Below, piece after piece: positions 4,567 to 25,478 of a stretch of DNA of 64,000 nucleotides. Under the pieces are notes generated by a model that saw only the letters and a program-made list of their open reading frames with translations, had not been told where the DNA came from and made no database searches. Numbering within the stretch: the first letter of the stretch is position 1; each line of letters starts with the position of its first letter. The translations under genes were made by a program, and so were the position numbers. The stretch is from Lentimicrobiaceae bacterium (GTDB lineage: Bacteria; Bacteroidota; Bacteroidia; Bacteroidales; UBA4417). The DNA is taken from positions 83,689-147,688 of the forward strand of contig JAVBOY010000012.1 in NCBI GenBank assembly GCA_031550085.1, in the 5' to 3' direction.

Positions 4567-4612
4567 TTTCTAATCGATTTTAATTAATTAATAATTTTGT
4601 GAAAATGTTATG

Positions 4613-5962: not shown

Positions 5963-6032
5963 TCTGTACTAATTTCAATATTAGCTAAAATAAACGAATG
6001 GTTGAATCCTATTATTTAAGCCCTACATTGTG

Positions 6033-9000: not shown

Positions 9001-10655
9001 GTCTCACTGCCTTAACCCTGCGTGTTATCAACAACAGTACGGGGTCGATGGGGAATGACTTTGCTATGGATGATATTGAAGTACATTTTTGTACTCCGCC
9101 GGTAGCCATAAATTCTTCGGTGGATTTGACCAACTCCGTATGTTTGGACACGCCAATTACGCTGACCGGTACCTATGCCGACGACGGTACTTTTGGCAGC
9201 TCGCTCGACTACCGCTGGGAGTACAGCCTCACGGGAAATATCAACAATCCGGCAGAGTGGACGGTACTGACTGCCTCCTCGGGCGCAAGCCCATTGGACA
9301 TAGACTTCAACATCCCTGTGCCAACTGCTGCCGGTACAGTTTTTTACCGCTTGGTTATTGCCGATGCAGCCAATATGGATAATCCCATGTGCCGCGCTGC
9401 TTCCAACATATTGTCAGTTAACTTCCAAAATAGACCTTCATTCAGTACCATTGCTGCAGCCACCTGTTCCGATGCCCTCAATTTATATGCCTATGTGGAA
9501 AATTTACAAAATACGGTTTCCGACAGCCTCAAATTTAGCACCGAAAACAGCTTCACTACAGGAGTTATCACCAATCCGGAAAATTACATTTTCACGGGCA
9601 TTACCACCATTTATGTAGTAGCAACAAATGGCGGATGCTCTTCGCCCGTGCAAACCATGACCATACAACCGGGCGTTTTGGGACTAAGCGCTCCCAATGA
9701 AAAGCTGAAAAATGTATCTTGTTTTGGAGGAAGTGATGGCTCGGCTTTAGCTCGGCCTTTAAATGGGTCAGCTCCATATACATACGCTTGGAACACTTCG
9801 CCTCCGCAAAGCGATAGCATTGCGCTCAATTTATCGAAAGGGACTTACAGTTGTACGGTTTCGGATGTTGTGGGCTGTACAGGAACGATTAATGTTACCC
9901 TTACAGAGCCACCGCTCCTGAGCATTCAAGGAATCACAACTACAAATACTTACTGCAACGAAGCATTTGGAGCATGCGAAATTCAGGTAACAGGCGGAAC
10001 TCCACCCTATACATACTCATTAGATGGAGGTGTTGTTTATCATACGACAAATAACCACTCCAACTTGTTACCCGGCAATTATCCGGTGGTGGTAAAGGAT
10101 AACAACGATTGTGAAACAGTACCCAGCGATATGACCATAACGAGTCAGCCGTTACAGATTTCAATTTCAACAACAAACACCATTTGCAAAATAGAAGGAA
10201 TGATTTTGGATCCTGGTTCCTTCCCTTTGCCTTATCTGTGGCACGACGGAAGCACTTCACAAACCTGCCAGGTGCGGGATACGGGCTGGTATTGGGTAAA
10301 AGTTGCGCAATCGCCCACTTGCGAAGCCTACGATTCGGTGTATATTGAAAGCTGCGACGTGAATTTGCTGATTCCCAATGCCTTTACACCCAATAGCGAT
10401 GGGCTGAATGATACTTTTCATGTGGTTTGCAATGAAAAAGCGCGGAGTCTCATTCCGGAAAACGGTTTTCATCTTCAGATTTTTAACAAATCCGGGCAGA
10501 TGATATTCCGGTCGAGCAACTTGGATGTACATTGGGATGGAAAATACATGGGAAAAGTGTGTCCCAAGGGAGTTTACAGTTATGTCATAAAGTACGTTGA
10601 TTCGTTTTCAGGACAATCAAAAACGATTCGAGGTACAGTTTTATTGCTGGACTAG
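6033..10655 (+). CDS. large secreted adhesin: choice-of-anchor L domain, SprB-type repeats, T9SS type B (gliding-motility) C-terminal domain
   Basis: Signal peptide (VWIGLLGVNAVYAQ). The choice-of-anchor L signature is GLVLSTG..GDPDL..ALEFDFVPTASEITFRYVFASEEYLQY..FNDVFGFF. SprB repeats are CFGGSDGSA..GSAPYTYAWN and GGTPPYTYSLDGG. The C-terminus reads IPNAFTPNSDGLNDTF. Confidence 0.9.
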   Translation: MKQKSAGIVCRFVIPVWIGLLGVNAVYAQTGSPALEARIDSLKQVYVDKGVVDSIAEKRARMIVESEWFKGKAPADKILDTPDGSIMVNRDPTYASYTPTQLVENIFVKSGACSSVSNVVLKSHGWNGTIWTHPDSRGLGYFSKNNSNFEMSEGLVLSTGALLSIEGPNASSDGVGDPLGTAPMGDPDLKLLAKDVRNYSALEFDFVPTASEITFRYVFASEEYLQYANTEFNDVFGFFIYELSNPSGKQNIAQLPTSSTGNYDVSINNVNWGNVDYPVHNTATPLTAGAKNPGYYKNIPGSFAPPPPFGGASYDSLKKSMQFNGRTVVLTATYQVNPCSSYHLKLAVGNCSDKNVQSGVFLEAHSLDLGELLKNSGSMNDGQEYVYRGCAVNKFTVFRLQADPTPLVVYLTYGGTALSDIALPGGGALPATVTIPANELSVDVFYEVKTLNLGTGHGTFTITTTCPCGGGGLGFTKTIDIYDPSDPDDFQAVATPACLGTNNGTITVSCGTGGSGTYESSIDGGITWQSFTLDYKYTELASADYSVFIRDMGGCTYETRNVSTFFSTFLAPTISGTFDICAPASSTTLTASAGGDSCQWYKDGSPIAGATSFVYTATASGNYYVIAFAGGCNSDFSDTVTVRIHGIVPDAAVTNLALTYWQYETAPSLLSATGATAITDHTLKWYQSDGTTLYTNAANPINTAVAGVYDYYVSQINDAASCESNKILVSVIVAKPQVLNYIACPDAVVTLGLDAIPGVSFYWYSAQSGGTLLTATSSDTYMVTKDAATLQTFWIEPRTSVTTYTRIPVNLSLSESCGGAPVTCTQTGTLLFREDFGGNSPSDPNPKPTGIPQMDPIYTYTTLPAGMTNERYYTINKSSFPHVGSGDWYEIDDHTYSGDATRGYMLQVNASAEKGQFYEHRLDGLCPGTKLYFSAWLVSLMNQSLSDKVNQIFTLEDNSGRIIVQYTSGALPDISPTWKQYGFEFTVPPGLTALTLRVINNSTGSMGNDFAMDDIEVHFCTPPVAINSSVDLTNSVCLDTPITLTGTYADDGTFGSSLDYRWEYSLTGNINNPAEWTVLTASSGASPLDIDFNIPVPTAAGTVFYRLVIADAANMDNPMCRAASNILSVNFQNRPSFSTIAAATCSDALNLYAYVENLQNTVSDSLKFSTENSFTTGVITNPENYIFTGITTIYVVATNGGCSSPVQTMTIQPGVLGLSAPNEKLKNVSCFGGSDGSALARPLNGSAPYTYAWNTSPPQSDSIALNLSKGTYSCTVSDVVGCTGTINVTLTEPPLLSIQGITTTNTYCNEAFGACEIQVTGGTPPYTYSLDGGVVYHTTNNHSNLLPGNYPVVVKDNNDCETVPSDMTITSQPLQISISTTNTICKIEGMILDPGSFPLPYLWHDGSTSQTCQVRDTGWYWVKVAQSPTCEAYDSVYIESCDVNLLIPNAFTPNSDGLNDTFHVVCNEKARSLIPENGFHLQIFNKSGQMIFRSSNLDVHWDGKYMGKVCPKGVYSYVIKYVDSFSGQSKTIRGTVLLLD

Positions 10656-10703
10656 GCGTTGTGTAGAAAATACAAATCCTATTTAAAGGGATGAAACGAA
10701 TAG

Positions 10704-11540
10704 TTAAATTTCTTTTTTCAATTTCCGCCTTGTTCCCAAAAACCTTATCAAATGTGCCAATGCAAACAGCATCACAAACACAAAAATAATGGTGGCTCCC
10801 GAGGGAATATTGAGGTAATACGAAATCAACAAACCGCTGAACGAACCCAAAAAGCTGATTAAAACAGAAAGGTAAATCATTTTTTTTAAATCGTTTACAA
10901 ACAGGTTGGCAGTTACTTGCGGAATGGTTAAAAAAGAAATCACCAAAATAATGCCCACCACGCGGATATGCAACACAATGGCCAATGCTACCAGGGTGAG
11001 CAGCAAATAATTGAACCATTCCACGGCCACACGGTGCGAGCGGGCGTATTCCTCGTCGAACGAAATAAACAGGATTTTATGGTAAAAAAATCCGAAAACA
11101 AGAATGGTTATTATCGCCAACAGCAGCATCAATTGCAGGTCGAGTGTGGTGACGGTTAAAATACTTCCGAATAAAAACGCCATCAGGTTGGGTGCATAAC
11201 CCGGAGTCAGGAATATAAAAATAATCCCCAGCGCCATTCCCAGCGACCACCAGATGCCGATGGCCGAATCTTCGCGCAGGTTGGTTTGCTGGGACGAAAT
11301 GCGGATTCCCAAAGCCGCCAGTACGCTAAATACCACGGCTCCGGCCACCGGATTGATTCCCAGAAAATAACCCAAGCCGATGCCACCGAACGAAGCGTGC
11401 GTAATGCCGCCGCTGATAAAAACCATGCGTCGCGCCACAATGTATGAACCGATAATTCCGCACGAAATGCTTGCCAGCAAAGCCGCCTCGACCGAATGGC
11501 GGAAAAAATCGTAGGAAAAAAGGTGTAAAAAATTATTCAT
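10704..11540 (-). CDS. znuB: metal (Zn/Mn) ABC transporter permease, ABC-3 family
   Basis: MNNFLHLFSYDFFRH start at 11540, 8-9 TM helices and a GGITHASFGGIGLG motif. The start was chosen to limit overlap with the upstream ATPase gene. Confidence 0.9.
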   Translation of the reverse strand: MNNFLHLFSYDFFRHSVEAALLASISCGIIGSYIVARRMVFISGGITHASFGGIGLGYFLGINPVAGAVVFSVLAALGIRISSQQTNLREDSAIGIWWSLGMALGIIFIFLTPGYAPNLMAFLFGSILTVTTLDLQLMLLLAIITILVFGFFYHKILFISFDEEYARSHRVAVEWFNYLLLTLVALAIVLHIRVVGIILVISFLTIPQVTANLFVNDLKKMIYLSVLISFLGSFSGLLISYYLNIPSGATIIFVFVMLFALAHLIRFLGTRRKLKKEI

Positions 11541-12309
11541 GGCTGTGCGGGTGTTGGTGCGAGTGGTCATGCGATTTCAAAACCGTATGCGGTACATTGC
11601 CGTGCGTAATGATTTGAAGCGGGCAGTTGTAAGCGGCTAGCTGTTCTTCGCTGATGATGTTCGACGGATGGTAATGCAGTTGCGTATTGACACAGGCAAT
11701 GGTTTTTACAAAATAGGAAATGGTTCCCACATCGTGCGACACCATGAGGATGGCCATGTGCTCGTTCATTTTGGCGAGGATTTTGTACAAATCGCTTTCG
11801 AACTGGTTGTCGACAAAGGTGCTGGGCTCGTCCAAAATAAGTAGTTGCGGATCGGAAATCAAGGCGCGGGCAATGAAAACACGCTGCATTTGTCCGCCAG
11901 AAAGGGCGCCGATGGACCGTTTAGCCAATGCTCCGATTCCTAATTCGGTTAACAAAGCATGCGCTTTTTCATAATCTTTTTGGGAATACCGGAGAAACCA
12001 GCCTTTTTGCGAAAGCAAACCGGACAACACCACATCAATAACGGTAATCGGGAATTTCTTGTCGATTTGGGAGGTTTGGGGCAAATAACCGATAAATCCC
12101 TTGCCGCTGCTTTCGTTGAAACGTTGCACATGGCCTTTGATGGGTTTTAACAAGCCCAGCAGCACTTTGATCAGCGTGGTTTTTCCGCCGCCGTTCGGAC
12201 CAATCACGCCGATATAGTCGTTTTTGCGGATGGTCAACGATACATCGCGCAAAACCACATGGCTTCCGTAGCCGGCCGTGACGTTATTGATTTCGAGTAG
12301 CTTGTCCAT
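11533..12309 (-). CDS. znuC: metal ABC transporter ATP-binding protein with His-rich C-terminal tail
   Basis: Walker A GPNGGGKTT, signature LSGGQMQR and Walker B LLILDEP. The tail is HDHSHQHPHSHE. ATG 12309 is preferred over TTG 12330. Confidence 0.9.
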   Translation of the reverse strand: MDKLLEINNVTAGYGSHVVLRDVSLTIRKNDYIGVIGPNGGGKTTLIKVLLGLLKPIKGHVQRFNESSGKGFIGYLPQTSQIDKKFPITVIDVVLSGLLSQKGWFLRYSQKDYEKAHALLTELGIGALAKRSIGALSGGQMQRVFIARALISDPQLLILDEPSTFVDNQFESDLYKILAKMNEHMAILMVSHDVGTISYFVKTIACVNTQLHYHPSNIISEEQLAAYNCPLQIITHGNVPHTVLKSHDHSHQHPHSHE

Positions 12310-12319
12310 TTTGCAGTTT

Positions 12320-13195
12320 TTAATCGGCAATCAGTTCTGCAAATTTCAACAAATTTTGTTGCCAGTCGGCATACATGGGATCAAATTCGACGATTTTGGC
12401 GCCGATTTCTTTGGCAATGGTTTCGGCGTTTTTGGTATCGAATTCTTTGGAAATAAACACCGTCCGGATTTGTTTTTGCCTTCCCAGATCGATCAATTGG
12501 CGTACATGAGCCGGAGAAGGTTCTTTGCCTTCGTCTTCGATACAAATTTGGGTTAAACCGTAATCGCGAGCAAAATAGCCCAAGGCCGGATGATAAATCA
12601 TAAAGCTTTTTCCTTCCTGTCCTTTTAACTTCCCGATTATGAGGGCATGGATGGAATCGGCCAGATGGTTGAATTTTTCCAGATTGCTTTTGTAAAAACC
12701 GGCATTTACCGAATCCAAAACACAGAGGCTGTGGCAAATGTTTGCCGCTTGTTGCTTGAGGCAGGTGGTCGACATCCAAATATGCGGATCGATGCTTTCG
12801 TGGGTGTGACCTTCGTGTTGGTGCAGGTGCCCGCTGAGCGGAGGGATGCCGGAATTGGTGTAAATAACATCCATTTTTGGGTTGGAGGATACCACACGCG
12901 GCAGCAGAGCTTGTTCAAAATCGAGCCAACCGATGGCAGCATACACACCGGCCTGCGAAATTTTTTCCATGTCGCGGGGAGTGGGTTCATAAGTTTCGTG
13001 ATTGCTTCCGGGCGGAAGCAGCACTTCTATCTGGAAGTTGTTTCCTGCAATCTGCTCAAACACTTGTTTTTGCGGTAAAATACTAACGACCGCAATTTTC
13101 TTTCCGGAATCCTTTGGAGGGGCTGGTTTGCAAGCGGTAAATAATGCAAAGCTTGCAACGACAGGCAGTAGGATGTTTTTGATAGGAGGTTTCAT
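12320..13195 (-). CDS. znuA: metal ABC transporter substrate-binding lipoprotein (ZnuA/TroA family)
   Basis: Lipobox LFTAC and a His-rich loop GHLHQHEGHTHESIDPHIW, which is typical of zinc-specific ZnuA. Confidence 0.9.
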   Translation of the reverse strand: MKPPIKNILLPVVASFALFTACKPAPPKDSGKKIAVVSILPQKQVFEQIAGNNFQIEVLLPPGSNHETYEPTPRDMEKISQAGVYAAIGWLDFEQALLPRVVSSNPKMDVIYTNSGIPPLSGHLHQHEGHTHESIDPHIWMSTTCLKQQAANICHSLCVLDSVNAGFYKSNLEKFNHLADSIHALIIGKLKGQEGKSFMIYHPALGYFARDYGLTQICIEDEGKEPSPAHVRQLIDLGRQKQIRTVFISKEFDTKNAETIAKEIGAKIVEFDPMYADWQQNLLKFAELIAD

Positions 13196-13595
13196 GAGGT
13201 GTTGAAGTGTTTAAGTGTTGAACTGTTGAATCGTTTAACTGTTGAGCTGTTATTTGTTGTTCGTTATTTGTTGAAACGTTTATTTGTTGAAACGTTTATT
13301 TGGTGAAATGTGAAATGGGGGGAACGGGAAGTGCTTGCTCGATTGATTTTAATACGATAATAGAATCTAATAATGTGTTATTTTAATTGCATAAAGTGAA
13401 ATGGCTGTTTAACTGTTTAATTGTTTATTTGTATCATCCCCCTTTCTGCTTTTTTCCTTTCTACATGACCACTCGTTACCCGTCACTTGAAAAACTCATT
13501 TGTAATTCCTTCTGCTATCTCCTTTCTGCTAAAAAAGTTTATCATTCATCATTAAAATACACATTTTCAATTTTTAACTTTCCATTTTCAATTAA
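13196..13595 (-). repeat. mosaic intergenic repeat, modules A-B-C (copy R2)
   Basis: Shares exact k-mers with 15435-15874: gtttatttggtgaaatgtgaa (13294-13314 and 15517-15537) and tttccattttcaattaat. Also carries the ctgcttttttcctttct module. Confidence 0.85.
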
Positions 13596-14858
13596 TTAAA
13601 GTCTTTCATCCACCTGTTTTTGGTCCCAAAACGCTTTGATATCGTATACGACGGATTTTTCTGCTTTTAGTTTATTGAAATTAAAATCCCGGAATTCATC
13701 GTGGGCTACCGCCAATATAATGGCGCTGTATTTCCCGGTTTCGGCCGATAGATTATTTTTCAAGGGAATCTGGTATTCTTGCGCCACTTCTCCGGCATTT
13801 GCGCGCGGATCGTATACATCCACGTGGCAGCCGAAGTCGGCCAATTCGCCGATCAAGTCGATTACCCGTGAATTGCGGATGTCGGAACAGTTTTCCTTGA
13901 AGGTAATTCCCAACACCAATACATGCGCGCCGGCAACGTCAATCCCCTTTTTTATCATCAGTTTGATGACCCGTTTGGCAACATAAAAGCCCATGTTGTC
14001 GTTCAGGCGGCGTCCGGCCAGGATAATTTCAGGATTGTAGCCCAGTTCATGCGCTTTGTGTGTAAGGTAGTACGGATCGACCCCAATGCAATGTCCGCCG
14101 ACCAAGCCGGGCGTGAACTTCATAAAATTCCATTTGGTGCCGGCTGCTTCGAGCACTTCGTGGGTGTCGATTTGCATTTCATTGAAAATCAACGCCAATT
14201 CATTCACAAAGGCAATGTTGAGGTCGCGCTGCGAATTTTCGATTACTTTGGCGGCTTCCGCTACTTTGATGCTCGAAACCAGATGGGTTCCTACTTTTAC
14301 AATGTTTTGATACAGTGCATCCACTTTTTTCCCGGTTTCGGGCGTGGAACCGCTGGTAATCTTTTTTACGTTGCTGAGCGTGTGTACTTTGTCTCCGGGA
14401 TTGATGCGTTCAGGTGAGTAGCCGCAAAAAAAATCGCGGTTGAATCGCAACCCGCTGGTTTTTTCCAGCACGGGAACACAATCTTCTTCGGTCGCGCCCG
14501 GATACACGGTACTTTCGTAAATAACAACATCATTGGGCTTCAAAACCCTGCCGACCGTTTCGGAAGCGCTCAACAAAGGCGTTAAATCGGGATGCTTGTT
14601 TTTATCGACCGGAGTGGGAACCGTGATAATAAAATAAGTACAGGCCTTTAAATCTTCTGGTTGGGTTGTAAAGCTTAGTTTTCCGGCGGCCGCAAGTTCC
14701 TCGTCTGCGGTTTCGCCGGATGTATCTTTTCCGTTTTTCAATTCGGCAATGCGTTCGGGTTTGATGTCGAAGCCGACGGTTGGAAACAGTTTTCCAAATT
14801 CAACGGCCAATGGCAAACCCACGTAACCCAATCCGATGATTCCTATTTTTGGTTCCAT
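13596..14858 (-). CDS. nucleotide-sugar dehydrogenase (UDP-glucose/GDP-mannose dehydrogenase family, TviB/WbpO-like)
   Basis: N-terminal Rossmann motif IGIIGLGYVGLPLA, catalytic region GLVGGHCIGVDPYY, about 420 aa. Confidence 0.9.
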   Translation of the reverse strand: MEPKIGIIGLGYVGLPLAVEFGKLFPTVGFDIKPERIAELKNGKDTSGETADEELAAAGKLSFTTQPEDLKACTYFIITVPTPVDKNKHPDLTPLLSASETVGRVLKPNDVVIYESTVYPGATEEDCVPVLEKTSGLRFNRDFFCGYSPERINPGDKVHTLSNVKKITSGSTPETGKKVDALYQNIVKVGTHLVSSIKVAEAAKVIENSQRDLNIAFVNELALIFNEMQIDTHEVLEAAGTKWNFMKFTPGLVGGHCIGVDPYYLTHKAHELGYNPEIILAGRRLNDNMGFYVAKRVIKLMIKKGIDVAGAHVLVLGITFKENCSDIRNSRVIDLIGELADFGCHVDVYDPRANAGEVAQEYQIPLKNNLSAETGKYSAIILAVAHDEFRDFNFNKLKAEKSVVYDIKAFWDQKQVDERL

Positions 14859-15434
14859 TTACGTAGTAACTTGTTGGCGGTTTTGCTCGCTCAGGTTAAA
14901 ATTTTCGGGGTGGCAGGCGGTTTTTTGTCTATAAAAATTTTCAATAATCTTAAAATCCATTTCGTAGTTTCCGGTGGTTTCCAGCAACGGCCCAATGCCC
15001 ACATGTTTGTTTTTATAATCCACGAATCCCAGCAAAATGGGTACGTGCGCTTGGTGTGCAATAAAATAAAATCCCTTTTTCCAGTTTTTGACCAGATTCC
15101 TGGACCCTTCGGGCGTAATGGTGATGATGAGTTCATCCTCTTTTAAAAGCATATCCACTACCTGATTGGTGGCATTGGCTCCTTTGCTGCGGTCTACCGG
15201 AATGCCGCCGCAACTTCTTAAAATCCCACCGAATGGGAAACGAAAGAATTCCTTCTTGATCAAATACTTAGCCCGGATGCCCAATCCCATGTAGCCGAAA
15301 AATCCGATGATAAAATCCCAAATGGATGTGTGCGGCGCGACAATAATAACCGCTTTCTTGATTTCGTCGGGTTTTTCGGTGGTAACATGCCAACCGAAAA
15401 GGCTTAAGATAAAACGTCCGGTTCGGGCTCTCAT
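14859..15434 (-). CDS. lysophospholipid (1-acyl-sn-glycerol-3-phosphate) acyltransferase family protein
   Basis: The HxxxxD motif appears as APHTSIWDF, and a PEGSR motif is present. The stop codon TAA directly abuts the ATG of the next gene. Confidence 0.8.
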   Translation of the reverse strand: MRARTGRFILSLFGWHVTTEKPDEIKKAVIIVAPHTSIWDFIIGFFGYMGLGIRAKYLIKKEFFRFPFGGILRSCGGIPVDRSKGANATNQVVDMLLKEDELIITITPEGSRNLVKNWKKGFYFIAHQAHVPILLGFVDYKNKHVGIGPLLETTGNYEMDFKIIENFYRQKTACHPENFNLSEQNRQQVTT

Positions 15435-15874
15435 TCGTTGTTGAATTGTTTATTTGTTGAATTGTTTATTGGGAGAAAATAGGGGAATGAGTGTTGAATT
15501 GTTGAGTTGTTGAACTGTTTATTTGGTGAAATGTGAACCGTGAAGTGGGTGTTGAAGTGTTGAGGTGTTGGACTGTTTATTGGTGTAGGGTATAAACTTG
15601 TTACCTATAACCTGTTAACTGAACGACACCCCCGCCCTTACGGGCACCCCCGCAAGCGGGGGATAGTTTTCTGCCTTCTGCTTTTTCCTTTCTGCTTTCT
15701 GCAATTAAAACTTGTTTACGCGTTACCCGTTACAAAACCTATTTTCAATTCTCAATTTTCCATTTTCAATTAATAAGCAGATTTCTTCCTTTCGCTTCGC
15801 TCCAGTCGAAATGACCTGTAATTCATCGTTAAACACTCATTTTTAATTCTTCATTTTTAATTTTTAATTAAAAC
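15435..15874 (-). repeat. mosaic intergenic repeat, modules A-B-hairpins-C (copy R3)
   Basis: Same modules as 13196-13595 and 46445-47013 (for example gccttctgctttttcctttc). Contains GC hairpins at 15627-15662. Confidence 0.85.
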
Positions 15875-17623
15875 TTACTCAATCCCCAAATCCAGTTGAT
15901 CGCGCAACACGCTTACGTTGGGATTCTCGGAGTTGAGTTGTTCGTAACGTTCCCGGTCGGTATAAGGCCTGCGGGTTTCATCCTGCGGCTTTTCAACCAA
16001 TACCGTTTCGATGATTATCTGGTCATTTTGCAGTTTGTTGCGCAAAAGTTCCAGCAGATCGGGCAAATAGTTTTTGACTTCCCGTTCCAAAACCGCACCT
16101 TCCAGCTTTAGAACGATGGTTGTTTCCTTTTCCAAAACGGGTTTGTATTGGGTCAATGCCGTGTAAATCAAAGTGGATTCCGATTGTTTGCTTTGGGCAA
16201 AATCGTTCCAATGCGATTCCAATTGTTCGAAAGTAAAGGGCTGTATGCGGGGCTGGCTTTTGGCGGCTTCTTCGGATGCGTTAGCCGTTTTTTTTTCAAG
16301 GTCTTTTAAGGAAACACCCGAAGCCGAAGGCATCATCGGATGGTTGATGATGGATTGCGGCGATGGATTCGATTGTGGTACGACGGCCGGTTGCGCGGAT
16401 GCCATAGCTTGCTGCGGCCTTTCCGTTGGTTGAACTGGTTGCGTGTCAGCTTGTGGTGGAACGGCGGTTGTTGTTTGTTGCTTGGACGGTTGTGCCGGAA
16501 CTATCGGTTGATTGGATGCAACCGGTTGATTTTCATTCAACTGAGTTAGTCGCATCAAGGTGATTTCCAGCGACAACCGTTTGTTGTTCGCCGCACGGTA
16601 ACCGGCATCGCATTTGTTTACCAGTTCGAGCCCTTTGACCAGAAACAAAAGCGAGCATTTTTGCGCTTGCGCTACGTATTTTTGGCGGATGCTGTCGGCA
16701 ATTTCGATCAAAATCACGGTGGACGGATCTTTGGCCATCATCAGATTGCGCAAATGGTCGCCCAAGCCGGTGATAAAATGCTGTCCGTCGAAACCCTTGG
16801 TGATAACATCGTTTAGCAGCAACATCGCTTGCTGGATATCGGCTGAAAGCAAATGATCGATCAGCCGGAAATAATAATCGTAATCCAGCACGTTTAAATT
16901 CTCGATTACCAGCGGATAGGTAATGTTGCGGTTCCCCAGGTTCGCCATTTGGTCGAAAATGGAAAGCGAATCGCGCATGGCTCCGTCGGCTTTTTGGGCG
17001 ATAATGTCCAAGGCAGCGCGTTCGGCTGTAATCTGTTCGCTTTGAGCTACCCAAGCCAGGTGTTCGGCAATATCCTGAACGGTAATCCGCTTGAAATCAA
17101 ATATCTGGCAACGTGATAATATCGTCGGAATAATTTTGTGTTTTTCGGTGGTAGCCAAAATAAATTTGGCATAAGCCGGAGGTTCTTCCAGGGTTTTCAA
17201 AAAAGCGTTGAACGCCTGCAACGACAGCATATGAACCTCGTCGATGATATACACCTTGTAAGCGCCCATTTGCGGCGGAATGCGCACCTGGTCGACCAAA
17301 CTGCGGATGTCGTCGACCCCGTTGTTGGAGGCGGCGTCCAGTTCGTGCACGTTAAACGAGGATGATTCGTTGAAGGCGCGGCAGGAAGTACATTCGTTGC
17401 AAGGTTCGATATTTTCGGTCGGGTGCTCGCAGTTGATGGTTTTGGCAAAAATACGGGCACAAGTGGTTTTTCCCACGCCCCGAGGGCCGCAAAACAAAAA
17501 AGCCTGGGCCAATTGGTTGTTGCGGATGGCGTTTTTAAGCGTATTGGTGATATGTTGCTGGCCTACAACGGTATTGAATGTCGAGGGGCGGTATTTCCGT
17601 GCCGAAACAATAAAATTTTCCAT
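15875..17623 (-). CDS. dnaX: DNA polymerase III subunit gamma/tau
   Basis: MENFIVSARKYRPSTF..GQQHIT, Walker A GPRGVGKTT, zinc module CNECTSC and Walker B IIDEVHML. A P/Q-rich linker precedes the C-terminal domain. ATG 17623 is preferred over the listed 17683. Confidence 0.95.
   Translation of the reverse strand: MENFIVSARKYRPSTFNTVVGQQHITNTLKNAIRNNQLAQAFLFCGPRGVGKTTCARIFAKTINCEHPTENIEPCNECTSCRAFNESSSFNVHELDAASNNGVDDIRSLVDQVRIPPQMGAYKVYIIDEVHMLSLQAFNAFLKTLEEPPAYAKFILATTEKHKIIPTILSRCQIFDFKRITVQDIAEHLAWVAQSEQITAERAALDIIAQKADGAMRDSLSIFDQMANLGNRNITYPLVIENLNVLDYDYYFRLIDHLLSADIQQAMLLLNDVITKGFDGQHFITGLGDHLRNLMMAKDPSTVILIEIADSIRQKYVAQAQKCSLLFLVKGLELVNKCDAGYRAANNKRLSLEITLMRLTQLNENQPVASNQPIVPAQPSKQQTTTAVPPQADTQPVQPTERPQQAMASAQPAVVPQSNPSPQSIINHPMMPSASGVSLKDLEKKTANASEEAAKSQPRIQPFTFEQLESHWNDFAQSKQSESTLIYTALTQYKPVLEKETTIVLKLEGAVLEREVKNYLPDLLELLRNKLQNDQIIIETVLVEKPQDETRRPYTDRERYEQLNSENPNVSVLRDQLDLGIE
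16288..16296 (-). other. A9 slippery run (A AAA AAA in phase) inside dnaX; candidate gamma-producing recoding site
   Basis: The sense strand reads CTT GAA AAA AAA ACG GCT AAC. A -1 shift, or one extra A in the transcript, reads AAC GGC TAA. Confidence 0.4.
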
Positions 17624-17651
17624 TTCCAAATTCGTTCTTCTGCTATCATGC

Positions 17652-17659
17652 AAAAGTAG
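17652..17659 (-). promoter_or_regulatory. -7 box TACTTTTG for dnaX
   Basis: + strand text caaaagta, 29 nt upstream of ATG 17623. Confidence 0.4.
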
Positions 17660-17728
17660 CATTAAGTCATGAATAATCGACAATTAAATAATTAACAATC
17701 GACGCTTCGGACAAGCCGGTAAATGAGT

Positions 17729-19282
17729 TTACTTGGCTTTCAGGTAAGCCACCGGAATCATCACTTCTTCCATCGAAATGCCTCCGTGCTGGAAGGTATT
17801 GCGGTAGTACGTCACGTAATAATTGTAATTGTTCGGGTAAGCAAAAAAATCGTTGCTCCGGCAAAAAACAAAACTGGAACTGACGTTGGTTTTGGGTAAA
17901 AACGCATCGTGCGGATTTTTTACTTCAAAAACTTCGCGTTTGTCGTAATTGAGACTTTTTCCGATTTTGTAACGCAGGTTGGTGTTGGTGTTCTTGTCGC
18001 CCACGATTTTTACCGGCGAATTTACGCGGATGGAGCCGTGGTCGGTGGTGAAAATAAGGGGAATTTTCTTTTCGGCCAGATACTTGATCATTTCCAGCAG
18101 GGGCGAATGCTCGAACCACGAAACAGTAAGCGAACGGTAAGCCGCTTCGTCGTCGGCCAGTTCACGGATCACTTCCATTTCGGTGCGGGCATGCGAAAGC
18201 ATGTCTACAAAATTGTAAACAATCACATTGAACTTGTTTTTAAGCAAATTGGGCAAACTTTCGAGCAGCTTCCGGCCGGCAGTGTAATTCAACACCTTGT
18301 TATAGGAATACGAAATATCTTTTCCGTGCCGTTTCAGGTTTTCGCCCAGCAATTCGCCTTCAAACTGGTTTTTCGAACCTTCATCGTCTTCGTTAAGCCA
18401 GTATTTGGGATATTTTTTCTCGATTTCCGAAGGCATCAATCCGCTGAACAAGGCGTTGCGGGCATATTGTGTAACAGTCGGCAAAATGGAATAGTAGATT
18501 TCATCGCGTTCGACGCGGTAATATTCTTCCAGGATGGGTTGCAGCGCTTTCCATTGGTCGTAACGCAAGTTGTCGACCAGGATCATGAAAAGGCAGTTGT
18601 TTTCGGCCAGTGCCGGAAAAACCTTTTCGCGGATCAGCGTTTGCGACTGAACGGGCTTTACGGCAGATTTTCCGTTTGCCCAATCCAAATAATTTTGTTC
18701 AAAAAATTTGGAAAATACCTGGTTAGCTTCGTTTTTTTGCATTTCCAGAATATCCAGCACACCGCTGTCCTGCGATTTCGAAAGCTCCAATTCCCAATAC
18801 ACCAGTTTCTGATAAATTTCGGCCCATGCATCGGGGCTCAATTTGTTGGAAAATTCCATGCTCAGGCTGCGGAATTCCTGTTGGTAGGCATGTGTGGTTT
18901 TTTCGCTGATCAGCCGCTTGTTTTCCAGATTCTTTTTCAGGCTCAGCAAAATTTGTTTCGGATTTACCGGTTTAATCAGGTAATCGGCAATGCTGCTGCC
19001 GATGGCATTTTCCATAATCAGTTCCTCTTCGCTTTTGGTAATCATGACCACAGGAAGATTGGGATAGATGGTTTTGATGCGTTCGAGCGTTTCGATGCCC
19101 GAAAGCCCCGGCATGTTTTCATCCAAAAAAACAATATCAAACGGGCGGGTTTTTAAAATATCCAAGGCCTCATCGCCGTTGGTCGAAGTGAATACTTCAT
19201 AGCCTTTCTCACGAAGGAATAGAATGTGCGGTTTTAATAAGTCAATTTCGTCGTCAGCCCAAAGAATTACGGCATTTTCCAT
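17729..19282 (-). CDS. porX: PorX-type response regulator (CheY receiver plus PglZ/alkaline-phosphatase-like domain)
   Basis: Receiver domain ILWADDEIDLLKPHILFLREKGYEV..DIVFLDENMPGLSG. It is followed by about 380 aa with PglZ-type motifs (VDNLRYDQW, FTTDHGS). ATG 19282 is preferred over the listed start. Confidence 0.85.
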   Translation of the reverse strand: MENAVILWADDEIDLLKPHILFLREKGYEVFTSTNGDEALDILKTRPFDIVFLDENMPGLSGIETLERIKTIYPNLPVVMITKSEEELIMENAIGSSIADYLIKPVNPKQILLSLKKNLENKRLISEKTTHAYQQEFRSLSMEFSNKLSPDAWAEIYQKLVYWELELSKSQDSGVLDILEMQKNEANQVFSKFFEQNYLDWANGKSAVKPVQSQTLIREKVFPALAENNCLFMILVDNLRYDQWKALQPILEEYYRVERDEIYYSILPTVTQYARNALFSGLMPSEIEKKYPKYWLNEDDEGSKNQFEGELLGENLKRHGKDISYSYNKVLNYTAGRKLLESLPNLLKNKFNVIVYNFVDMLSHARTEMEVIRELADDEAAYRSLTVSWFEHSPLLEMIKYLAEKKIPLIFTTDHGSIRVNSPVKIVGDKNTNTNLRYKIGKSLNYDKREVFEVKNPHDAFLPKTNVSSSFVFCRSNDFFAYPNNYNYYVTYYRNTFQHGGISMEEVMIPVAYLKAK

Positions 19283-19471
19283 ATATTTTTTTATTAAGTT
19301 ACTTGTTTTGAAAACGGTGAAGTGATTATCTTTGTTCAATAAAATAACCACAGGCATCTTATAGAATGCAAAAAGAAACGATTTTATTGTATTCGCAAAC
19401 TATTAATTGGAAGTCGTGTGTAGTATATTTCCAATAATTATTTGACAATCAAAATTCTATATAAACCCAAA

Positions 19472-20707
19472 ATGAGCTTTTACACTCCCAATAAACGCAA
19501 AATTATAAACGATCCGTTGCACGGGTTTATTACGATTCCCAACGAATTGGTTTACGATATTATCGAAACGCCTTGTTTTCAGCGCTTGCGGCGGATTAAA
19601 CAAGCCGGCTTGACCGGATTGGTGTATCCCGGCGCTTTACACACCCGTTTTCAGCATGCTCTGGGAGCCATGCATCTGACACAACAGGCTGTTGAAACCT
19701 TGAAACACAAAGGATTTGAGATTTCCGACAACGAAACCTTAGGGGTTACTTTGGCCATTTTGTTGCACGATATCGGACACGGGCCTTTTTCGCATGCCTT
19801 GGAAAATTGTATTGTGCCGCTGGATCACGAACAGATTTCACTTTTGTTTTTTGAAAAATTGAACAAACAATTCAATAACCAGCTAGACACGGCCATAAAA
19901 ATTTTTACCAACCAATATCCCCAAAAATTCTTGCACCAACTAGTATCCAGTCAACTGGATATGGACCGCTTGGACTACCTGATGCGCGACAGCTTTTTTG
20001 CCGGAGTAAGCGAGGGGGTGGTCAATATCGACCGCATTTTGAAAATGTTGACCATCGTCAACGACGAGTTGGCGGTGGAAGAAAAAGGGATTTATTCGAT
20101 CGAAAACTTTATTGTAGCCCGCCGCCTGATGTACTGGCAGGTTTATTTTCATAAAACCGTGCTGGCTGCCGAAAGTATGTTGGCCAGCCTGATCAAGCGG
20201 GCCAAGGAATTGATTCAATCGGGTGTTGATCTTCCGGCCAGCCCGCCCTTGCTTTATTTTCTGAAAAACAACAATTCGGTGTTCGATATGGACGAATTGC
20301 TGGATCATTTCCAACTGCTGGACGATGACGATGTGGTGGCGGCCACCAAAAACTGGATGTATGCGTCCGATCCCATTTTAAAACAATTGAGTTCGGCCTT
20401 GGTATACCGCCATTTGTTTGCCCTTGAAATTCAAAACGAACCGTTTGATGTAGATTACAAGCAACAAATCCGGCAAGCCATCGCCCGGAAAATGAACCTT
20501 CCGGAAGCGGAGGTTTCTTATTTGTTTCTGGAAGGAACCATTACCAACAAAGCCTATACGGCCGGCGACGATAAAATCGGGATTGCAGATAAAAAGGGAA
20601 ACCTTACCGATATTTCGCAGGTAGCCGATATGTTGAATATTTCGGTACTGGCACATCCCATAACCAAATATTATATTGCGTATCCCAAGGAGTTTCGTGC
20701 TACATAG
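19472..20707 (+). CDS. HD-domain phosphohydrolase (SAMHD1/dNTPase-like, COG1078 type)
   Basis: INDPLHGFI..FQRLRRIKQ..HTRFQHALGAMHL..LLHDIGHGPFSH..QLDMDRLDYLMRDS. Confidence 0.9.
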   Translation: MSFYTPNKRKIINDPLHGFITIPNELVYDIIETPCFQRLRRIKQAGLTGLVYPGALHTRFQHALGAMHLTQQAVETLKHKGFEISDNETLGVTLAILLHDIGHGPFSHALENCIVPLDHEQISLLFFEKLNKQFNNQLDTAIKIFTNQYPQKFLHQLVSSQLDMDRLDYLMRDSFFAGVSEGVVNIDRILKMLTIVNDELAVEEKGIYSIENFIVARRLMYWQVYFHKTVLAAESMLASLIKRAKELIQSGVDLPASPPLLYFLKNNNSVFDMDELLDHFQLLDDDDVVAATKNWMYASDPILKQLSSALVYRHLFALEIQNEPFDVDYKQQIRQAIARKMNLPEAEVSYLFLEGTITNKAYTAGDDKIGIADKKGNLTDISQVADMLNISVLAHPITKYYIAYPKEFRAT

Positions 20708-20760
20708 GGAAACGTCAATGATCAGAACAAGAAAGTTTGAGTTAAAAGGATCACTTTCAG

Positions 20761-22029
20761 TTACGAAACAATCTTCGCCACGGCATTGTGAATGTCGATT
20801 CCGCTCGGGCTCTGGAATACCCGCAGGTCGAATTCGGGAACAATGGCCAAAATATGGTCAAAAATATCGCTTTGTACTTTTTCGTACCGCGCCCACTTGA
20901 CTTCGGTGGTAAATGCATAAATCTCGATGGGAATGCCGTTTGCCGTGGGTTGCAACTGGCGAACCAGCAAATCCAGGTCCTGGCGTATCAATTCGTTGTT
21001 CCGTAAATAAATTTCCAGGTAAGCACGGAAAATGCCGATATTCGTTTGGCGTTTGCCGTTTACCAGAATAGATTCGTCGATTTTGTTGGCGCTGTTGTAT
21101 TCGTCCAGTTCTTGCTCCGTTTGGTCGATATAGTCTTTCAAAATGCTGATTCTGCGAAAGTTGTTGAGCATTTTTTTATCACAAAAACGTACGCTGGCCA
21201 TATCAATGTTGATAAAGCGTTTCATGCGGCGGGCGCCCGACTCTTGCATGCCGCGATAGTTTTGGAACGAATCGGTGATCAGTGAATAGGTAGGCAGGGT
21301 GGTGATGGTATTATCCCAATTCTGAACTTTTACCGTGGTCAGCGAAATTTCCTGAACCGTTCCGTCGGCATTGTATTTGGGCATATTAATCCAGTCGCCC
21401 AGTCGCACCATATCATTGGCCGAGATTTGGATTCCACCCACAAACCCCAAAATGCTGTCCCTGAAAATCAACAGTAAAACGGCAGAAAATGTTCCCAGGC
21501 CGATCAATACGGAGCCTGCGGATTTGTTGAGTAAAAACGATAAAATGACAATGATACCCAGCATTACCACAAAGGTCTTCCCAACCTGGATAAAGCCTTT
21601 GATCGGGTGATTCCGGGAGGTGGCCTTCTTTTCGAAAATGGCTTCAATGGAATTTAAAAAGGAAAATCCGATCAAGATAACGACGATAACCAGATAGATG
21701 CTGGTAAGCAACAAAAATAGGCTGGTAAGTTTCGGGAATTCGGAGAGCGTGGCCGGAATGCTGTTGTAAACAAGCAAGCCCGGTATTAATAATGCGATTC
21801 GCTGGAATACCTTTTTCGTTATCAGCACATCATCCCATTCGGTTCTGGTGCGGGCAACGATGCGCCGGACAATTTTGTTGATTAAAAATTTGGAAACATG
21901 ATACAAGGCATAGCCTAGCAGTAGGATCAGGATAAAATCGCTTAAATGGATGATTTTTTCGGCAATATGAGTGGATATTCCGATGTCAATCAGCCATTTA
22001 TGTATAATCGTTTTAATGTTTTCAGGCAT
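20761..22029 (-). CDS. mechanosensitive ion channel family protein (MscS-like)
   Basis: Several N-terminal TM helices are followed by the MscS beta domain (FRDSILGFVGGIQISANDMVRLGDWI..GTVQEISLTTVKVQNWDNT). Confidence 0.9.
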   Translation of the reverse strand: MPENIKTIIHKWLIDIGISTHIAEKIIHLSDFILILLLGYALYHVSKFLINKIVRRIVARTRTEWDDVLITKKVFQRIALLIPGLLVYNSIPATLSEFPKLTSLFLLLTSIYLVIVVILIGFSFLNSIEAIFEKKATSRNHPIKGFIQVGKTFVVMLGIIVILSFLLNKSAGSVLIGLGTFSAVLLLIFRDSILGFVGGIQISANDMVRLGDWINMPKYNADGTVQEISLTTVKVQNWDNTITTLPTYSLITDSFQNYRGMQESGARRMKRFINIDMASVRFCDKKMLNNFRRISILKDYIDQTEQELDEYNSANKIDESILVNGKRQTNIGIFRAYLEIYLRNNELIRQDLDLLVRQLQPTANGIPIEIYAFTTEVKWARYEKVQSDIFDHILAIVPEFDLRVFQSPSGIDIHNAVAKIVS

Positions 22030-22232
22030 CTCTATCTAAGGGTAAAATAAGACGAATCTTAGGAAAAACGTACTTCTCAGTAGAAAATCATAATCAAAAA
22101 CAAAGTTAAAGGTTTTTCTGAAAAAGCAAAATAACCGGAACCTTGATTGCAAGGCGCCAGTTATTTTGGGTAACTAAGAAAAAACATCACACTTCCGAAG
22201 GTCAGGCTGTTTGTGTTTAAGCCGGGCTTCGG

Positions 22233-22943
22233 TTATTTTTTAGCCAGAGCAGTTTTGTAACGGCTTTCGACGGTTTTCCAATCTACCAGATTCCAAAATG
22301 CATCCACATATTCGGGCCGGCGATTTTGGTATTTCAAATAATAGGCGTGTTCCCATACATCCAATGCCAACAAGGGAATTCCATTTTCTTCTACAACATC
22401 CATCAGCGGGTTGTCTTGATTGGAAGTGGTCGTGATTTTCAACTCATGATTCTTCGTAAGGATCAGCCAAGCCCATCCGCTTCCGAATTTTCCTTTGGCG
22501 GCATTCGAAAATTGTTCCTTAAACTTATCGAAACTTCCGAATTGTTTCTCGATCACTTTCATAAGGTCTGCGCTGGGTTGTCCACCGGCGTTGGGTTTCA
22601 TATTTTCCCAGTACAAAGTGTGGTTGTAAAATCCTCCGGCATTGTTCCGCACATCGACGGAACGTTTGCTGATGGTTGCAAAAATTGTTTCCATCGGCAT
22701 GGTTTCCATATCGGTTCCTTTGATGGCCGCAACAAATTTGGTGTAATAGCCCCGGTGGTGCTTGTCGTAGTGGAGTTCGACGGTTGCTTTGTCAATATAA
22801 GGCTCCAGGGCGTCGTACGAATAAGGCAAAGCCGGAAATACAAAACTTTGGGCGGCTGCTTGCGCTGGTTTATTTTGCGCTGACAAACGGCCTCCGGTTA
22901 AAAAGGCAAACCCGCATAAGGTAAAAAGCAATAAATGTTTCAT
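22233..22943 (-). CDS. Fe/Mn superoxide dismutase with N-terminal signal peptide (exported form)
   Basis: MKHLLLFTLCGFAFLTGGRLSAQ is followed by [39 protein letters not shown] 22943 was chosen as the start. Confidence 0.9.
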   Translation of the reverse strand: MKHLLLFTLCGFAFLTGGRLSAQNKPAQAAAQSFVFPALPYSYDALEPYIDKATVELHYDKHHRGYYTKFVAAIKGTDMETMPMETIFATISKRSVDVRNNAGGFYNHTLYWENMKPNAGGQPSADLMKVIEKQFGSFDKFKEQFSNAAKGKFGSGWAWLILTKNHELKITTTSNQDNPLMDVVEENGIPLLALDVWEHAYYLKYQNRRPEYVDAFWNLVDWKTVESRYKTALAKK

Positions 22944-23088
22944 GATTTTAGATATAAAAGTTAGAATGAAAGAATTAAAAAATAGTCTAATACCAAAGGT
23001 GGCGATTAACAAGAGATATAATCTTTTCGTGAAAATAAATTCGAATAATTAATAGGGTCTCCGAAAGCTGGCAATAAGCGATCTAAAG

Positions 23089-23703
23089 TTAGTTATTTTG
23101 ATGCCTTTTGTAAAAATCATTTACTTTTTCCCAATTCACGAGATTCCAAAAAGCGTTGATGTAGTCGGGACGCCGGTTTTGGTATTTTAAATAGTAAGCA
23201 TGTTCCCACACGTCCAAACAAAGGATCGGTTTGCCGTGACAATCATGGATATCCATCAACGGATTGTCTTGATTGGCGCTGGAACAAATGCACAACTCGC
23301 CGTTTTCTTTTACGCTCAGCCACACCCAACCGCTGCCAAATCGATTTGTTGCCGCTTCTGTAAATTTGGTTTTGAAATTTTCGAACGAGCCGAATTGTTT
23401 GGTAATCGCTTCGCCGATTTCATTTTTGGGTTCACCGCCTCCGTTTGGCGAAAGAATTTCCCAAAACAGTTTGTGATTGTAATATCCGCCGCTATTGTTC
23501 CGGACGGCAACCGGCAGTTTGCTGATGTTGGCAAAAATTTCTTTCAAAGGCTTGCCTGCATATTCAGTTTCGGCGATAGCCGCCACAAATTTATCAAAAT
23601 AAGCTTTGTGGTGCTTCGTATGGTGGATTTCCATGGTCATGCGGTCGATATGAGGCTCCAATGCGTCATATGCGTAAGGAAGTTCGGGGAATTTATAGTC
23701 CAT
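23089..23703 (-). CDS. sod: Fe/Mn superoxide dismutase (cytoplasmic form)
   Basis: [44 protein letters not shown]. Confidence 0.95.
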
Positions 23704-24110
23704 TGTTTTCTAAATTTATGGGTTGATAGTAAAAAAGTAATAACGAATCATAAACACTAAATGATGCAAAAAAGTTCACGATTACCTTATTTTTAAAGCA
23801 CTAAAAATAAATAATATACGAAAATGGACCCTCTAAATCAATGATCTAAAGCGGATGAGCTGTGTAAAATGAATGGTTTTGGCACTTAATTTGCTTGTAA
23901 ATATTGGAAAATTTGAGTAAAAAATACTGCTTTTCTATGAAAAAGAAGTATTTTTGTTCTCTATTTTTAACAATTAGGACTTGGAATAGGTAATGGTGTA
24001 GTTTTTTTTGTTTGAAAGAGTATCCAAGAAACAGGCAAAAAAGAAGGAAAGTAAAAATTATTCCCCTATTACTTTTTTTGATTTAAAGATTTAACATAAC
24101 AAGAAAGTAT

Positions 24111-25430
24111 ATGAAGAAAGTACTGTTTTTTTTCGTGCTTTTGGTTGCTGCCAATGGTTTAGTCATAGCACAAGACGCTACTCTTACAAAGGAGCAGTTA
24201 TTTGCGCTTTTCAATCAGGCAGGCCAGGCTGAGAAAGAAGGGCGTGATCAGGATGCCATCAACAATTATTTGACCATTGTCAAACATGCGCCGCAAATCC
24301 CGGAAACATACTATCGGTTGGGGAACTTGTTAGGGAAAAAAGAGGATCGAACTTCCATCGAAATGGCCATTACTTATTACACCAATTACTTGACTTTATT
24401 ACCGAATGCCGACAATGCCGATGAAGTGCGGGAAGAAATATTACGTTTGCAGCGTAAACTCCGCGGATTGCCAGCAACCGCCACAGCACAGGTAAAACCT
24501 GGGGATAAATCGCCTGCCGATACAACTGTAAAGAAACTGACCGCCAGCGATTACATGAGGATTGGGAATAACTATTTCGATAAAAAGCAATACAAACCAG
24601 CCATTGAAAATTTTGAAAAAGCGAAAGACCTGAATGAAACGGATGAGCAATACTACTACTTGTGTTTGTCCTATGTAGGTTTGAAAGATAAGGATAACGC
24701 AGAACTTGCGTTGAAGAATTACGAGCGGTTGTCTCCGGACGGGGCATTTAAGAAGGAGTTGAAGCAAGCGATCAAGAAGATGAATGAAGAACAGTACGAC
24801 CGCGTATCAGGGCTGGATTTGATGAAATTTTACCTCGGAATCAATTACCGCTATTCTCTCAATATGGGAATAAAGTATGAGGGGACTTCATACAAATCGA
24901 ATCCTTTGCAGGGAGGAAGCATTCAATTTATTTCCGGGTCGGAGCGGCAGCTGAAATTCGGTGTCGACCTCGCTTACAACTGGATCAAGATTTCAAAATC
25001 GATGGATTCCACAGGAATATTTACCTATCCTTGGGGCGATCAGCGCGATAACATTATGAATGTGGATTTGAGGTTTAAAGGAATATTTGTTCCCGAAAAA
25101 CCGCTATTCAGTTTGGGAGAGAAAAATGTTGCACGCTTTATCGGTTCATTTGGCGCCGGATTGGGCTATTTGACGACCACAGGAAATCCCTGGTTCTTTT
25201 ATCCGGATCAAGGAGAAGAACCGGATCCAACCTCCAAGGTACTTTCGGGATTCTTGAATTACTTAAGCTATGAAGCAACCGTTGGTATACTGTTCTCGCA
25301 GAGGAGTACTTTGCGGGGTTTGAAGATCGAATTGGTTGGAGCTGGATATTGGCAGTTTGATACCGAATACCGTTTTCAACCGTATGCTGCGCTTCAGGTG
25401 GGCTGGGTGTTTGGATTTTCGCGGCACTAA
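24111..25430 (+). CDS. secreted TPR-like protein with beta-rich Gly/aromatic C-terminal domain (possible outer-membrane barrel)
   Basis: Signal peptide LLVAANGLVIAQ. TPR-like helices span about residues 30-230. The C-terminal ~200 aa show alternating aromatic/Gly strands and end in GWVFGFSRH. Confidence 0.75.
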   Translation: MKKVLFFFVLLVAANGLVIAQDATLTKEQLFALFNQAGQAEKEGRDQDAINNYLTIVKHAPQIPETYYRLGNLLGKKEDRTSIEMAITYYTNYLTLLPNADNADEVREEILRLQRKLRGLPATATAQVKPGDKSPADTTVKKLTASDYMRIGNNYFDKKQYKPAIENFEKAKDLNETDEQYYYLCLSYVGLKDKDNAELALKNYERLSPDGAFKKELKQAIKKMNEEQYDRVSGLDLMKFYLGINYRYSLNMGIKYEGTSYKSNPLQGGSIQFISGSERQLKFGVDLAYNWIKISKSMDSTGIFTYPWGDQRDNIMNVDLRFKGIFVPEKPLFSLGEKNVARFIGSFGAGLGYLTTTGNPWFFYPDQGEEPDPTSKVLSGFLNYLSYEATVGILFSQRSTLRGLKIELVGAGYWQFDTEYRFQPYAALQVGWVFGFSRH

Positions 25431-25478
25431 TTAAAATAAAACCACTTTGCCGGATTCCGGTCTGGCAAAAAATACTTG

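Follow-up and report, generated by a model that had tools for sequence, protein, structure and literature searches.

The gene dnaX, from which DNA polymerase III obtains both its tau and its gamma subunit, arrives at its shorter product by different routes in different bacteria. In Escherichia coli this happens by −1 programmed ribosomal frameshifting at A AAA AAG, whose AAG is weakly paired by the single tRNA-Lys, assisted by an upstream Shine-Dalgarno (SD) element about 10 nt 5′ of the site and a downstream stem-loop or pseudoknot 5–9 nt past the heptamer. In Thermus thermophilus, according to Larsen et al. 2000 as summarised in PMC1088944 and PMC5009743, gamma results from transcriptional slippage at a run of nine A residues (A9), and both other frames meet a stop nearby. 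PMC5009743 also describes proteolysis of tau as the source of gamma in Caulobacter crescentus, and nascent-RNA stem-loop-mediated slippage in the Roseiflexus IS630 element (Penno et al. 2015). Antonov et al. 2013 (PMC3711429, Fig. S3) predicted transcriptional realignment at A10 in dnaX genes split into two open reading frames (ORFs), in Flavobacterium, Cytophaga, Capnocytophaga, Chlorobi and Coraliomargarita. Sharma et al. 2014 (PMC4066793) noted that the single-ORF form escapes the disrupted-ORF method of that study, and that the position of the dnaX site is imperfectly conserved. Beyond Enterobacteria and Thermus, both the existence of a separate gamma subunit and the route to it are poorly charted. 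The present analysis concerns the dnaX gene of a Lentimicrobiaceae bacterium (Bacteroidota), located in a 64,000-nucleotide stretch of contig JAVBOY010000012.1, the whole of which is referred to below as the window.

The window's dnaX is a single ORF that carries an A9 run shortly before a −1-frame stop. The kind of system that this layout suggests is already known, experimentally from Thermus and by prediction from two-ORF genes of Bacteroidetes; the window's site would be unusual in its position. The chances appear about even that the run is a slippage site in actual use, displaced from the place that such sites occupy elsewhere in the phylum.

Results

The dnaX gene and its A9 run

The gene occupies positions 15875–17623 on the minus strand, with its ATG at 17623 and its stop codon at 15875–15877, and stands in the ORF list as a single frame of 582 amino acids. 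Its product matches the NCBIfam equivalog PRK14971, scoring 779 bits where the cutoff is 685, and Pfam assigns to it DNA_pol3_delta2, DNAX_ATPase_lid and DNA_pol3_gamma3, that is, the clamp-loader ATPase, the lid and domain III. A mechanical ORF call and the database protein (595 aa) use an upstream start (17623–17683). All homologues begin at MENF or MDNF, so that ATG 17623, giving 582 aa, and not the upstream codon, is the likely start of dnaX.

Domain III of the clamp-loader core (PF12169) extends over 16535–16888, or residues ~246–363, and is followed at 16302–16534 (residues ~364–441) by a linker that is P/Q-rich in translation and shows no conservation in the alignment. Immediately past this linker, codons 442–446 read CTT GAA AAA AAA ACG, which places nine consecutive A residues at 16296–16288 of the minus strand, across E443, K444 and K445 and into T446 by one base; this homopolymer is the putative transcriptional slippage site. 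It lies between the end of domain III (~363) and the start of the conserved, tau-specific C-terminal domain (15878–16246, residues ~460–582, from FTFEQLESHW onward, delimited by alignments and by PF28557 matches on homologues), about 17 residues before the latter. The run contains A AAA AAA (16295–16289) in the X XXY YYZ phase; from domain III to the C-terminal domain no other heptamer is in phase. Past the run, reading in the −1 frame gives AAC GGC TAA; this stop lies at 16281–16283, two codons on, and the first stop in the +1 frame is a TGA at 16168–16170, 39 codons on.

Products were simulated for mRNAs of different run lengths. An A10 mRNA, or equally a −1 ribosomal slip, would yield a gamma-like protein of 447 aa that ends in LEKKNG and lacks the C-terminal tau domain. 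For A8 and A11 mRNAs the predicted products are 484 and 485 aa long, both with an out-of-frame tail of 39–40 residues, and for an A12 mRNA 583 aa. The initial annotation had named the gene, its coordinates, its 582 residues from ATG 17623 and the A9 run. It had also described the phase of the heptamer, the −1 stop with its 447-aa product, and the placing of the site past the P/Q-rich linker, which falls between domain III and the tau-specific C-terminal domain. The sequence, the NCBIfam and Pfam matches, the alignment and the simulation bear all of this out.

Avoidance of A-runs in the genes of the window

The number of sense-strand A-runs was compared with that in synonymous-codon shuffles. 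In a cleaned set of 50 genes (17,319 codons), which leaves out dnaX and a probably spurious ORF at 4052–4471, runs of at least nine A are absent where 2.9 are expected (P(0) = 0.008), and runs of at least eight number 4 against an expected 12.7. A cruder set of 52 ORFs (18,055 codons) gives 6 runs of at least eight against 13.5. Runs of seven A are common here; their number is, if anything, below the shuffle prediction. The genome avoids slippage-prone A-runs in its genes, and dnaX is the single exception, its A9 being the only run of at least nine inside a genuine coding sequence of the window.

Within 460 nt, at 4239–4702, there are three A9 runs. The one at 4239–4247 was considered as a second A9 in a coding sequence and ruled out, as it is the T-run of the hairpin terminator (GTCCATCCTTGCGATGGAC followed by T9) of a minus-strand HU-like gene; the plus-strand ORF 4052–4471 is antisense to this gene and probably spurious. 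The remaining two, at 4653–4661 and 4694–4702, are situated upstream of the HU-like gene.

A phylum-wide A10 cassette in dnaX

A comparison set of 80 Bacteroidota dnaX loci (L001–L080) was scanned for A-runs. Sixty loci carry a run of at least nine A at codons 331–480 (53 A10, four A9, two A11 and one A13), and 59 of these 60 runs sit at codons 345–387, directly 3′ of domain III, a position termed canonical here. The first 330 codons of the same 80 genes, 26,400 codons altogether, hold no such run. Every one of the 49 single-ORF genes with a run has a −1-frame stop within 4 codons and a +1-frame stop within 15 codons; stops in both other frames fall within 7 codons in 45 of the 49, against a background of 0.15. 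In the 11 two-ORF genes a zero-frame stop comes no more than 5 codons from the run and the C-terminal domain continues in another frame, −1 in nine genes and +1 in two, and tau itself requires a shift. Most Bacteroidota dnaX genes carry a single-ORF cassette of hairpin, A10 and double stop. In layout these genes agree with the dnaX of Thermus thermophilus and with the two-ORF A10 genes of Antonov et al. 2013.

No description of this single-ORF cassette was found in the literature searched. The suggestion in the initial annotation that such a site is undescribed in Bacteroidota holds, within that literature, for the single-ORF form, and fails for the two-ORF A10 form, which had been predicted (PMC3711429) and to which L021, L039, L044, L049, L051, L069, L071 and L072 belong. 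A search for an exact match to Flavobacterium johnsoniae dnaX, made with the sequence from Fig. S3 of Antonov et al., returned none.

The position of the run is not invariable. L015 has no canonical run and carries an A10 at L015:2861–2870. This run stands at codon 454, immediately ahead of the C-terminal domain, and is followed by a −1-frame stop after 1 codon and a +1-frame stop after 4; judged by this arrangement, it is a convincing candidate for a displaced slippage site. A different irregularity was noticed in L026, where the reading frame passes to +1 shortly 5′ of the frame-0 stop (codon 384) with no A-run; the cause is either an error in the assembly or a further signal for recoding.

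RNA structure around the runs

The 36–40 nt located 5′ of canonical runs are more structured than the remaining segments of their genes (mean percentile 0.29, Wilcoxon p = 3e-6). The 50 nt on the 3′ side show no enrichment of structure (percentile 0.50), which argues against frameshifting of the E. coli type. At 26 of 59 canonical sites (44%) a hairpin worth 5 kcal/mol or more ends 0–3 nt before the run, against 14.2% of background segments (binomial p = 3e-8) and 11.5 ± 3 sites in shuffles, the loci being phylogenetically related and the effective sample for these hairpin statistics being smaller than 59. The hairpin sequences vary between families, and the geometry is terminator-like, followed by the A's.

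At the window's A9 a weak RNA hairpin, GGGUGUUUCCUUAAAAGACCU (16299–16319, minus strand, −4.1 kcal/mol), ends 2 nt 5′ of the run and shares the geometry of the canonical sites. The structure of the 5′ side (80-nt fold, z = −2.8) was considered as a signal and set aside, since an abutting hairpin as good as this one is found at 22–25% of random positions. Downstream, the energy of the 80-nt fold is −8.4 kcal/mol (z = +2.25), a value that each of 200 shuffles equals or betters, in agreement with the earlier remark that no strong 3′ hairpin is visible. The weak cggct/agccg pairing at 16264–16287 abuts the 3′ side of the run with zero spacer; as the downstream segment is less structured than its shuffles, this pairing is no frameshift stimulator.

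Run lengths in RNA and DNA

A freshwater Flavobacteriia metagenome-assembled genome (MAG), present in many public sequencing runs, contains a two-ORF dnaX with A10 at 2600–2609 (L049). On the DNA side, 8 metagenomes from several studies show A10 in every contig that crosses the run, with no indel or break. Spanning contigs from 6 metatranscriptomes carry A11 (four contigs, three sequencing runs), A12 (one), A13 (one) and A10 (one), and in two sequencing runs RNA contigs end exactly at the homopolymer. A non-templated length is thus seen in 6 of 7 RNA contigs and 0 of 8 DNA contigs (Fisher p = 0.0014, in a comparison made on assembled contigs, not reads), and A11 is the length that brings tau in frame. 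For a single-ORF A10 gene of a lake Chitinophagaceae (L067), one sequencing run contained the gene with the A-run uncovered, and the gene was absent from 3 other freshwater metatranscriptomes.

The exact A10 length, the double stops, the genes that continue in the +1 frame and the A11–A13 lengths in RNA favour slippage for the family, and the pattern across the phylum points to transcriptional slippage and not to E. coli-type frameshifting. The spread of canonical runs over the three codon phases was tried as a further argument against frameshifting and rejected: any A10 contains an in-phase heptamer, and codon phase therefore does not separate the two mechanisms.

The organism of the window is uncultured; its sequences occur in two runs of an invertebrate gut metagenome, X1 from DNA and X2 labelled as RNA. 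In X2 one contig of 1,619 nt crosses the homopolymer and reads A9, with no indel variant. The depth of X2 over 20 kb (6001–26000) is 10–37 against 56–63 for DNA, about 0.2–0.6 of the DNA depth, with intergenic DNA covered, and the breakpoints of its contigs almost coincide with those of the DNA assembly. This near-uniform coverage and the shared breaks indicate that much of the X2 signal for this genome is probably DNA carry-over. The contig is weak evidence against very efficient slippage and is otherwise uninformative, contigs being prone to drop minor variants.

The site in relation to the nearest homologues

At the canonical position the window's gene reads CTAACTCAGTTGAATGAAAATCAACCG, with no A-run. 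Its protein is a singleton in a collection of 5.8 billion proteins; the protein search gave no relative above 60% identity, and a genome-contig search with the linker and C-terminal part, aimed at close relatives, gave no confirmed locus. The 119 best homologues are single-ORF proteins, 52–60% identical overall and 73–78% in the N-terminal core, and none has a lysine run either at codon ~365 or at the window's position, where EKK aligns with MSQ, ITQ, MQQ or INK in the nearest relatives. A peptide that could be encoded with an A9 run occurs after residue 330 in 3 of 120 homologues, the window's protein counted. The closest relative (P0002) has no run, and P0113 is the only one of the 119 with a run in the linker, an A8. 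In the P0113 gene this A8 stands at L081:1678–1685 (codon 460, CAA AAA AAA TCT), with stops at 3 codons (−1) and 28 codons (+1), a layout like that of the window with a shorter run.

By this comparison the window's gene belongs to a large clade devoid of such runs, and its A9 run would be a lineage-specific novelty. The initial annotation had proposed checking orthologues for conservation of the A-run and of the −1 stop. Both are present in most Bacteroidota at codon ~365; at the window's own place, codon 443, the nearest relatives have neither, so that conservation lends no support to the window's site.

In-frame TAG codons at the gamma/tau boundary

Five species-level MAGs of gut Bacteroidales have no A-run and carry an in-frame TAG at codons 367–372, the gamma/tau boundary: L085 (=L046, codon 367), L090 (=L037), L091 (=L025), L111 and L125. 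The context is conserved as CCA/ACA TAG ATT GCW AGG TCG CC (GGT CC in L090), as is the peptide past the TAG (*IARSPQAEHGK), and frame 0 runs on into the C-terminal domain. The arrangement looks like one in which termination would give gamma, and readthrough of the UAG or a local recoding event would give tau. A loose pattern scan for the context gave mostly chance matches in unrelated phyla, and the five matches inside dnaX were retained. No description of a dnaX of this type was found in the literature searched.

Intergenic repeats near dnaX

The gene block downstream of dnaX is flanked, at 13200–13610 and 15420–15870, by 8-nt periodic repeats (TGTTGAAN / TGTTTATT) together with a shared 60-nt unit. 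The k-mer depth of these repeats is 4–18 times that of the genome in both sequencing runs, and contigs join 13426–13435 to 15668–15669. The flanking repeats appear to be a multi-copy intergenic family.

Discussion

Proposed mechanism

Taken as a used, displaced slippage site, the A9 run of the window would operate as follows. RNA polymerase would sometimes realign on the T9 template and release mRNAs with A10, and also with A8, A11 and other lengths. Ordinary translation of the A10 mRNA would end at the TAA two codons on and give the 447-aa gamma-like DnaX, consisting of the clamp-loader core and the linker and devoid of the C-terminal tau domain; the unslipped mRNA would give the 582-aa tau. 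The site would then be a lineage-specific, displaced and unpolished counterpart of the cassette of hairpin, A10 and double stops at the end of domain III. Both the slippage at this run and the use of the short protein are inferences here. What the site has in common with the canonical ones is the gene itself, a run of at least nine A and a −1 stop within 4 codons, in this case at 2. Its length is within the natural range, as four canonical sites and the site of Thermus thermophilus are also A9.

A possible fortuitous origin of the run

The alternative to be weighed first, which we regard as somewhat less likely, is that the run is fortuitous: by chance an EKKT peptide in a rapidly evolving linker is written in the preferred codons GAA AAA AAA ACG, any slippage there is noise, the −1 stop is a coincidence and the lineage, like its run-less relatives, relies on no gamma of this origin. 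Several observations weigh against a functional site in the window. The run stands 78 codons 3′ of the canonical position, past the P/Q-rich linker, and departs from the canonical pattern in four respects, namely position, exact A10, a near +1 stop and a strong hairpin. Its +1 stop comes only after 39 codons, farther than in any of the canonical sites (maximum 15 in the 49 single-ORF ones), its hairpin is by itself not significant given the frequency of equally good ones, and a −1 stop within 2 codons, with P = 0.11 at random positions, is unremarkable alone. None of the 119 nearest homologues has such a site. AAA accounts for 78% of lysine and GAA for 82% of glutamate codons in this genome, and because these codons are preferred EKKT is kept as a run of at least nine A in about half (49%) of synonymous dnaX shuffles; a single A9 among some 120 run-less relatives is roughly the chance expectation. 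The RNA-labelled contig shows A9 only. Even the evidence from L049 may be overstated: reverse transcriptase can add bases at such motifs with structure ahead (PMC5737552), and the RNA insertions could be inflated in this way, the orientation of the hairpin being a fitting one.

Against a fortuitous origin stands the purging of A-runs from the other genes of this genome. The sole exception falls in a gene family with phylum-conserved slippage runs, within an interdomain segment of ~100 codons, and has a −1 stop as close as those of the canonical sites; a rough estimate puts the joint chance at 0.05–0.2% per dnaX gene. Displaced sites also exist, as L015 suggests.

It is tempting to extend the reading of the window's A9 as a used, displaced site to the history of the gene. 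Bacteroidota dnaX may undergo turnover among recoding solutions, comprising an ancient A10 slippage cassette in single-ORF and two-ORF forms, the run displaced past the linker (L015 and the window) and the in-frame UAG of some gut Bacteroidales. In the window, slippage-made gamma might then have been invented anew, independently and recently, by a clade that had lost the ancestral cassette, and be caught before a +1 stop and a strong hairpin had evolved. This broader scenario is speculative, and we consider it rather unlikely.

Ribosomal frameshifting and assembly error as less likely alternatives

A further possibility is −1 ribosomal frameshifting of the E. coli type, in which two tRNA-Lys would slip on the A AAA AAA of an A9 mRNA before the ribosome meets the TAA. 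The X XXY YYZ phase of the heptamer and the −1 stop two codons on are compatible with it, and the product would be the same as that of an A10 mRNA. It is nonetheless improbable. The 80 nt on the 3′ side are poorly structured, with the only pairing placed without a spacer, and canonical sites likewise have no 3′ enrichment. The ~20 nt upstream (...GGTGTTTCCTTAAAAGACCTTG) contain no AGGAGG/AGGGAG-like SD, and Bacteroidota make little use of SD pairing in general. The heptamer ends in AAA, not AAG, and A AAA AAA is far less shift-prone in E. coli than A AAA AAG (PMC5009743). Nor does a −1 slip explain why the phylum keeps 10 A's and not 7, why stops stand in both frames, or why two genes continue in the +1 frame. 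No tRNA genes were found in the window.

The initial annotation had left two mechanisms side by side. Slippage has gained from the hallmarks seen across the phylum and from the RNA of L049, and −1 frameshifting has lost ground with the lack of an SD, of 3′ structure and of AAG. On this analysis transcriptional slippage is much better supported than ribosomal frameshifting in the family, and this judgement is extended to the window. A true run length different from A9 has a negligible chance: homopolymers are generally error-prone, but the independent DNA run reproduces A9 in a 4.1-kb contig at depth ~60 with zero differences and the ORF is intact and full-length, so that an assembly or sequencing error is effectively refuted.

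Implications

The comparison set contains evidence that the site can shift along the gene or give way to another signal, among them the in-frame UAG of some gut Bacteroidales. If the window's A9 is indeed a used slippage site, a site of this kind can vanish and re-arise elsewhere in the same linker, and selection acts on having a short DnaX, not on a particular sequence. On the practical side, annotation pipelines take the A10 cassette either for ordinary coding sequence or for a pseudogene with a frameshift, which affects calls of an essential replication gene throughout the phylum. The cassette also offers a natural system for hairpin-assisted slippage of RNA polymerase.

Comparison with known systems

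The single-ORF cassette of Bacteroidota and the window's site would share one logic, tau from the unslipped and gamma from the slipped mRNA, with a −1 stop within 4 codons. They differ in that the cassette lies at codons 345–387, has A10 in 53 of 60 cases, a +1 stop at no more than 15 codons and a strong hairpin next to the run in 44%, whereas the window has none of these four features. The two-ORF A10 genes (PMC3711429) belong to the same phylum as the window and likewise have a poly-A tract at the gamma/tau boundary. There tau needs the slip, whereas in the single ORF of the window gamma would need it, and their A10 stands at codon ~365 after domain III, whereas the window's A9 stands at codon 443 after the linker.

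Thermus is alike in having a single-ORF dnaX with nine sense-strand A's past the clamp-loader core, where slipped mRNA runs into a nearby stop and gives a shorter gamma with no need of ribosomal stimulators. Near stops are present there in both non-zero frames, and in the window in the −1 frame only. Slippage and both proteins have been demonstrated by experiment in Thermus, whereas the window's site is known from sequence; the phyla are different and the positions of the sites are not homologous. With E. coli the window shares the gene, a gamma devoid of the tau C-terminal domains, an in-phase lysine heptamer, a −1 stop at 1–2 codons and, similarly, a site ~60–80 residues beyond domain III. 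It lacks the AAG, the SD-like element and the 3′ stem-loop, that is, the defining stimulators of the E. coli site.

The Roseiflexus IS630 element resembles the canonical dnaX sites in the terminator-like hairpin directly 5′ of the slippery run, a feature enriched at those sites. It is an insertion sequence transposase with a short U5C4-type motif on which slippage depends on the hairpin, whereas the dnaX run is long enough to slip unaided and the window's hairpin is weak. Caulobacter, finally, provides another route to a short DnaX, one that would be possible for the run-less relatives of the window; it differs from all the above in being post-translational and in needing no nucleic-acid signal.

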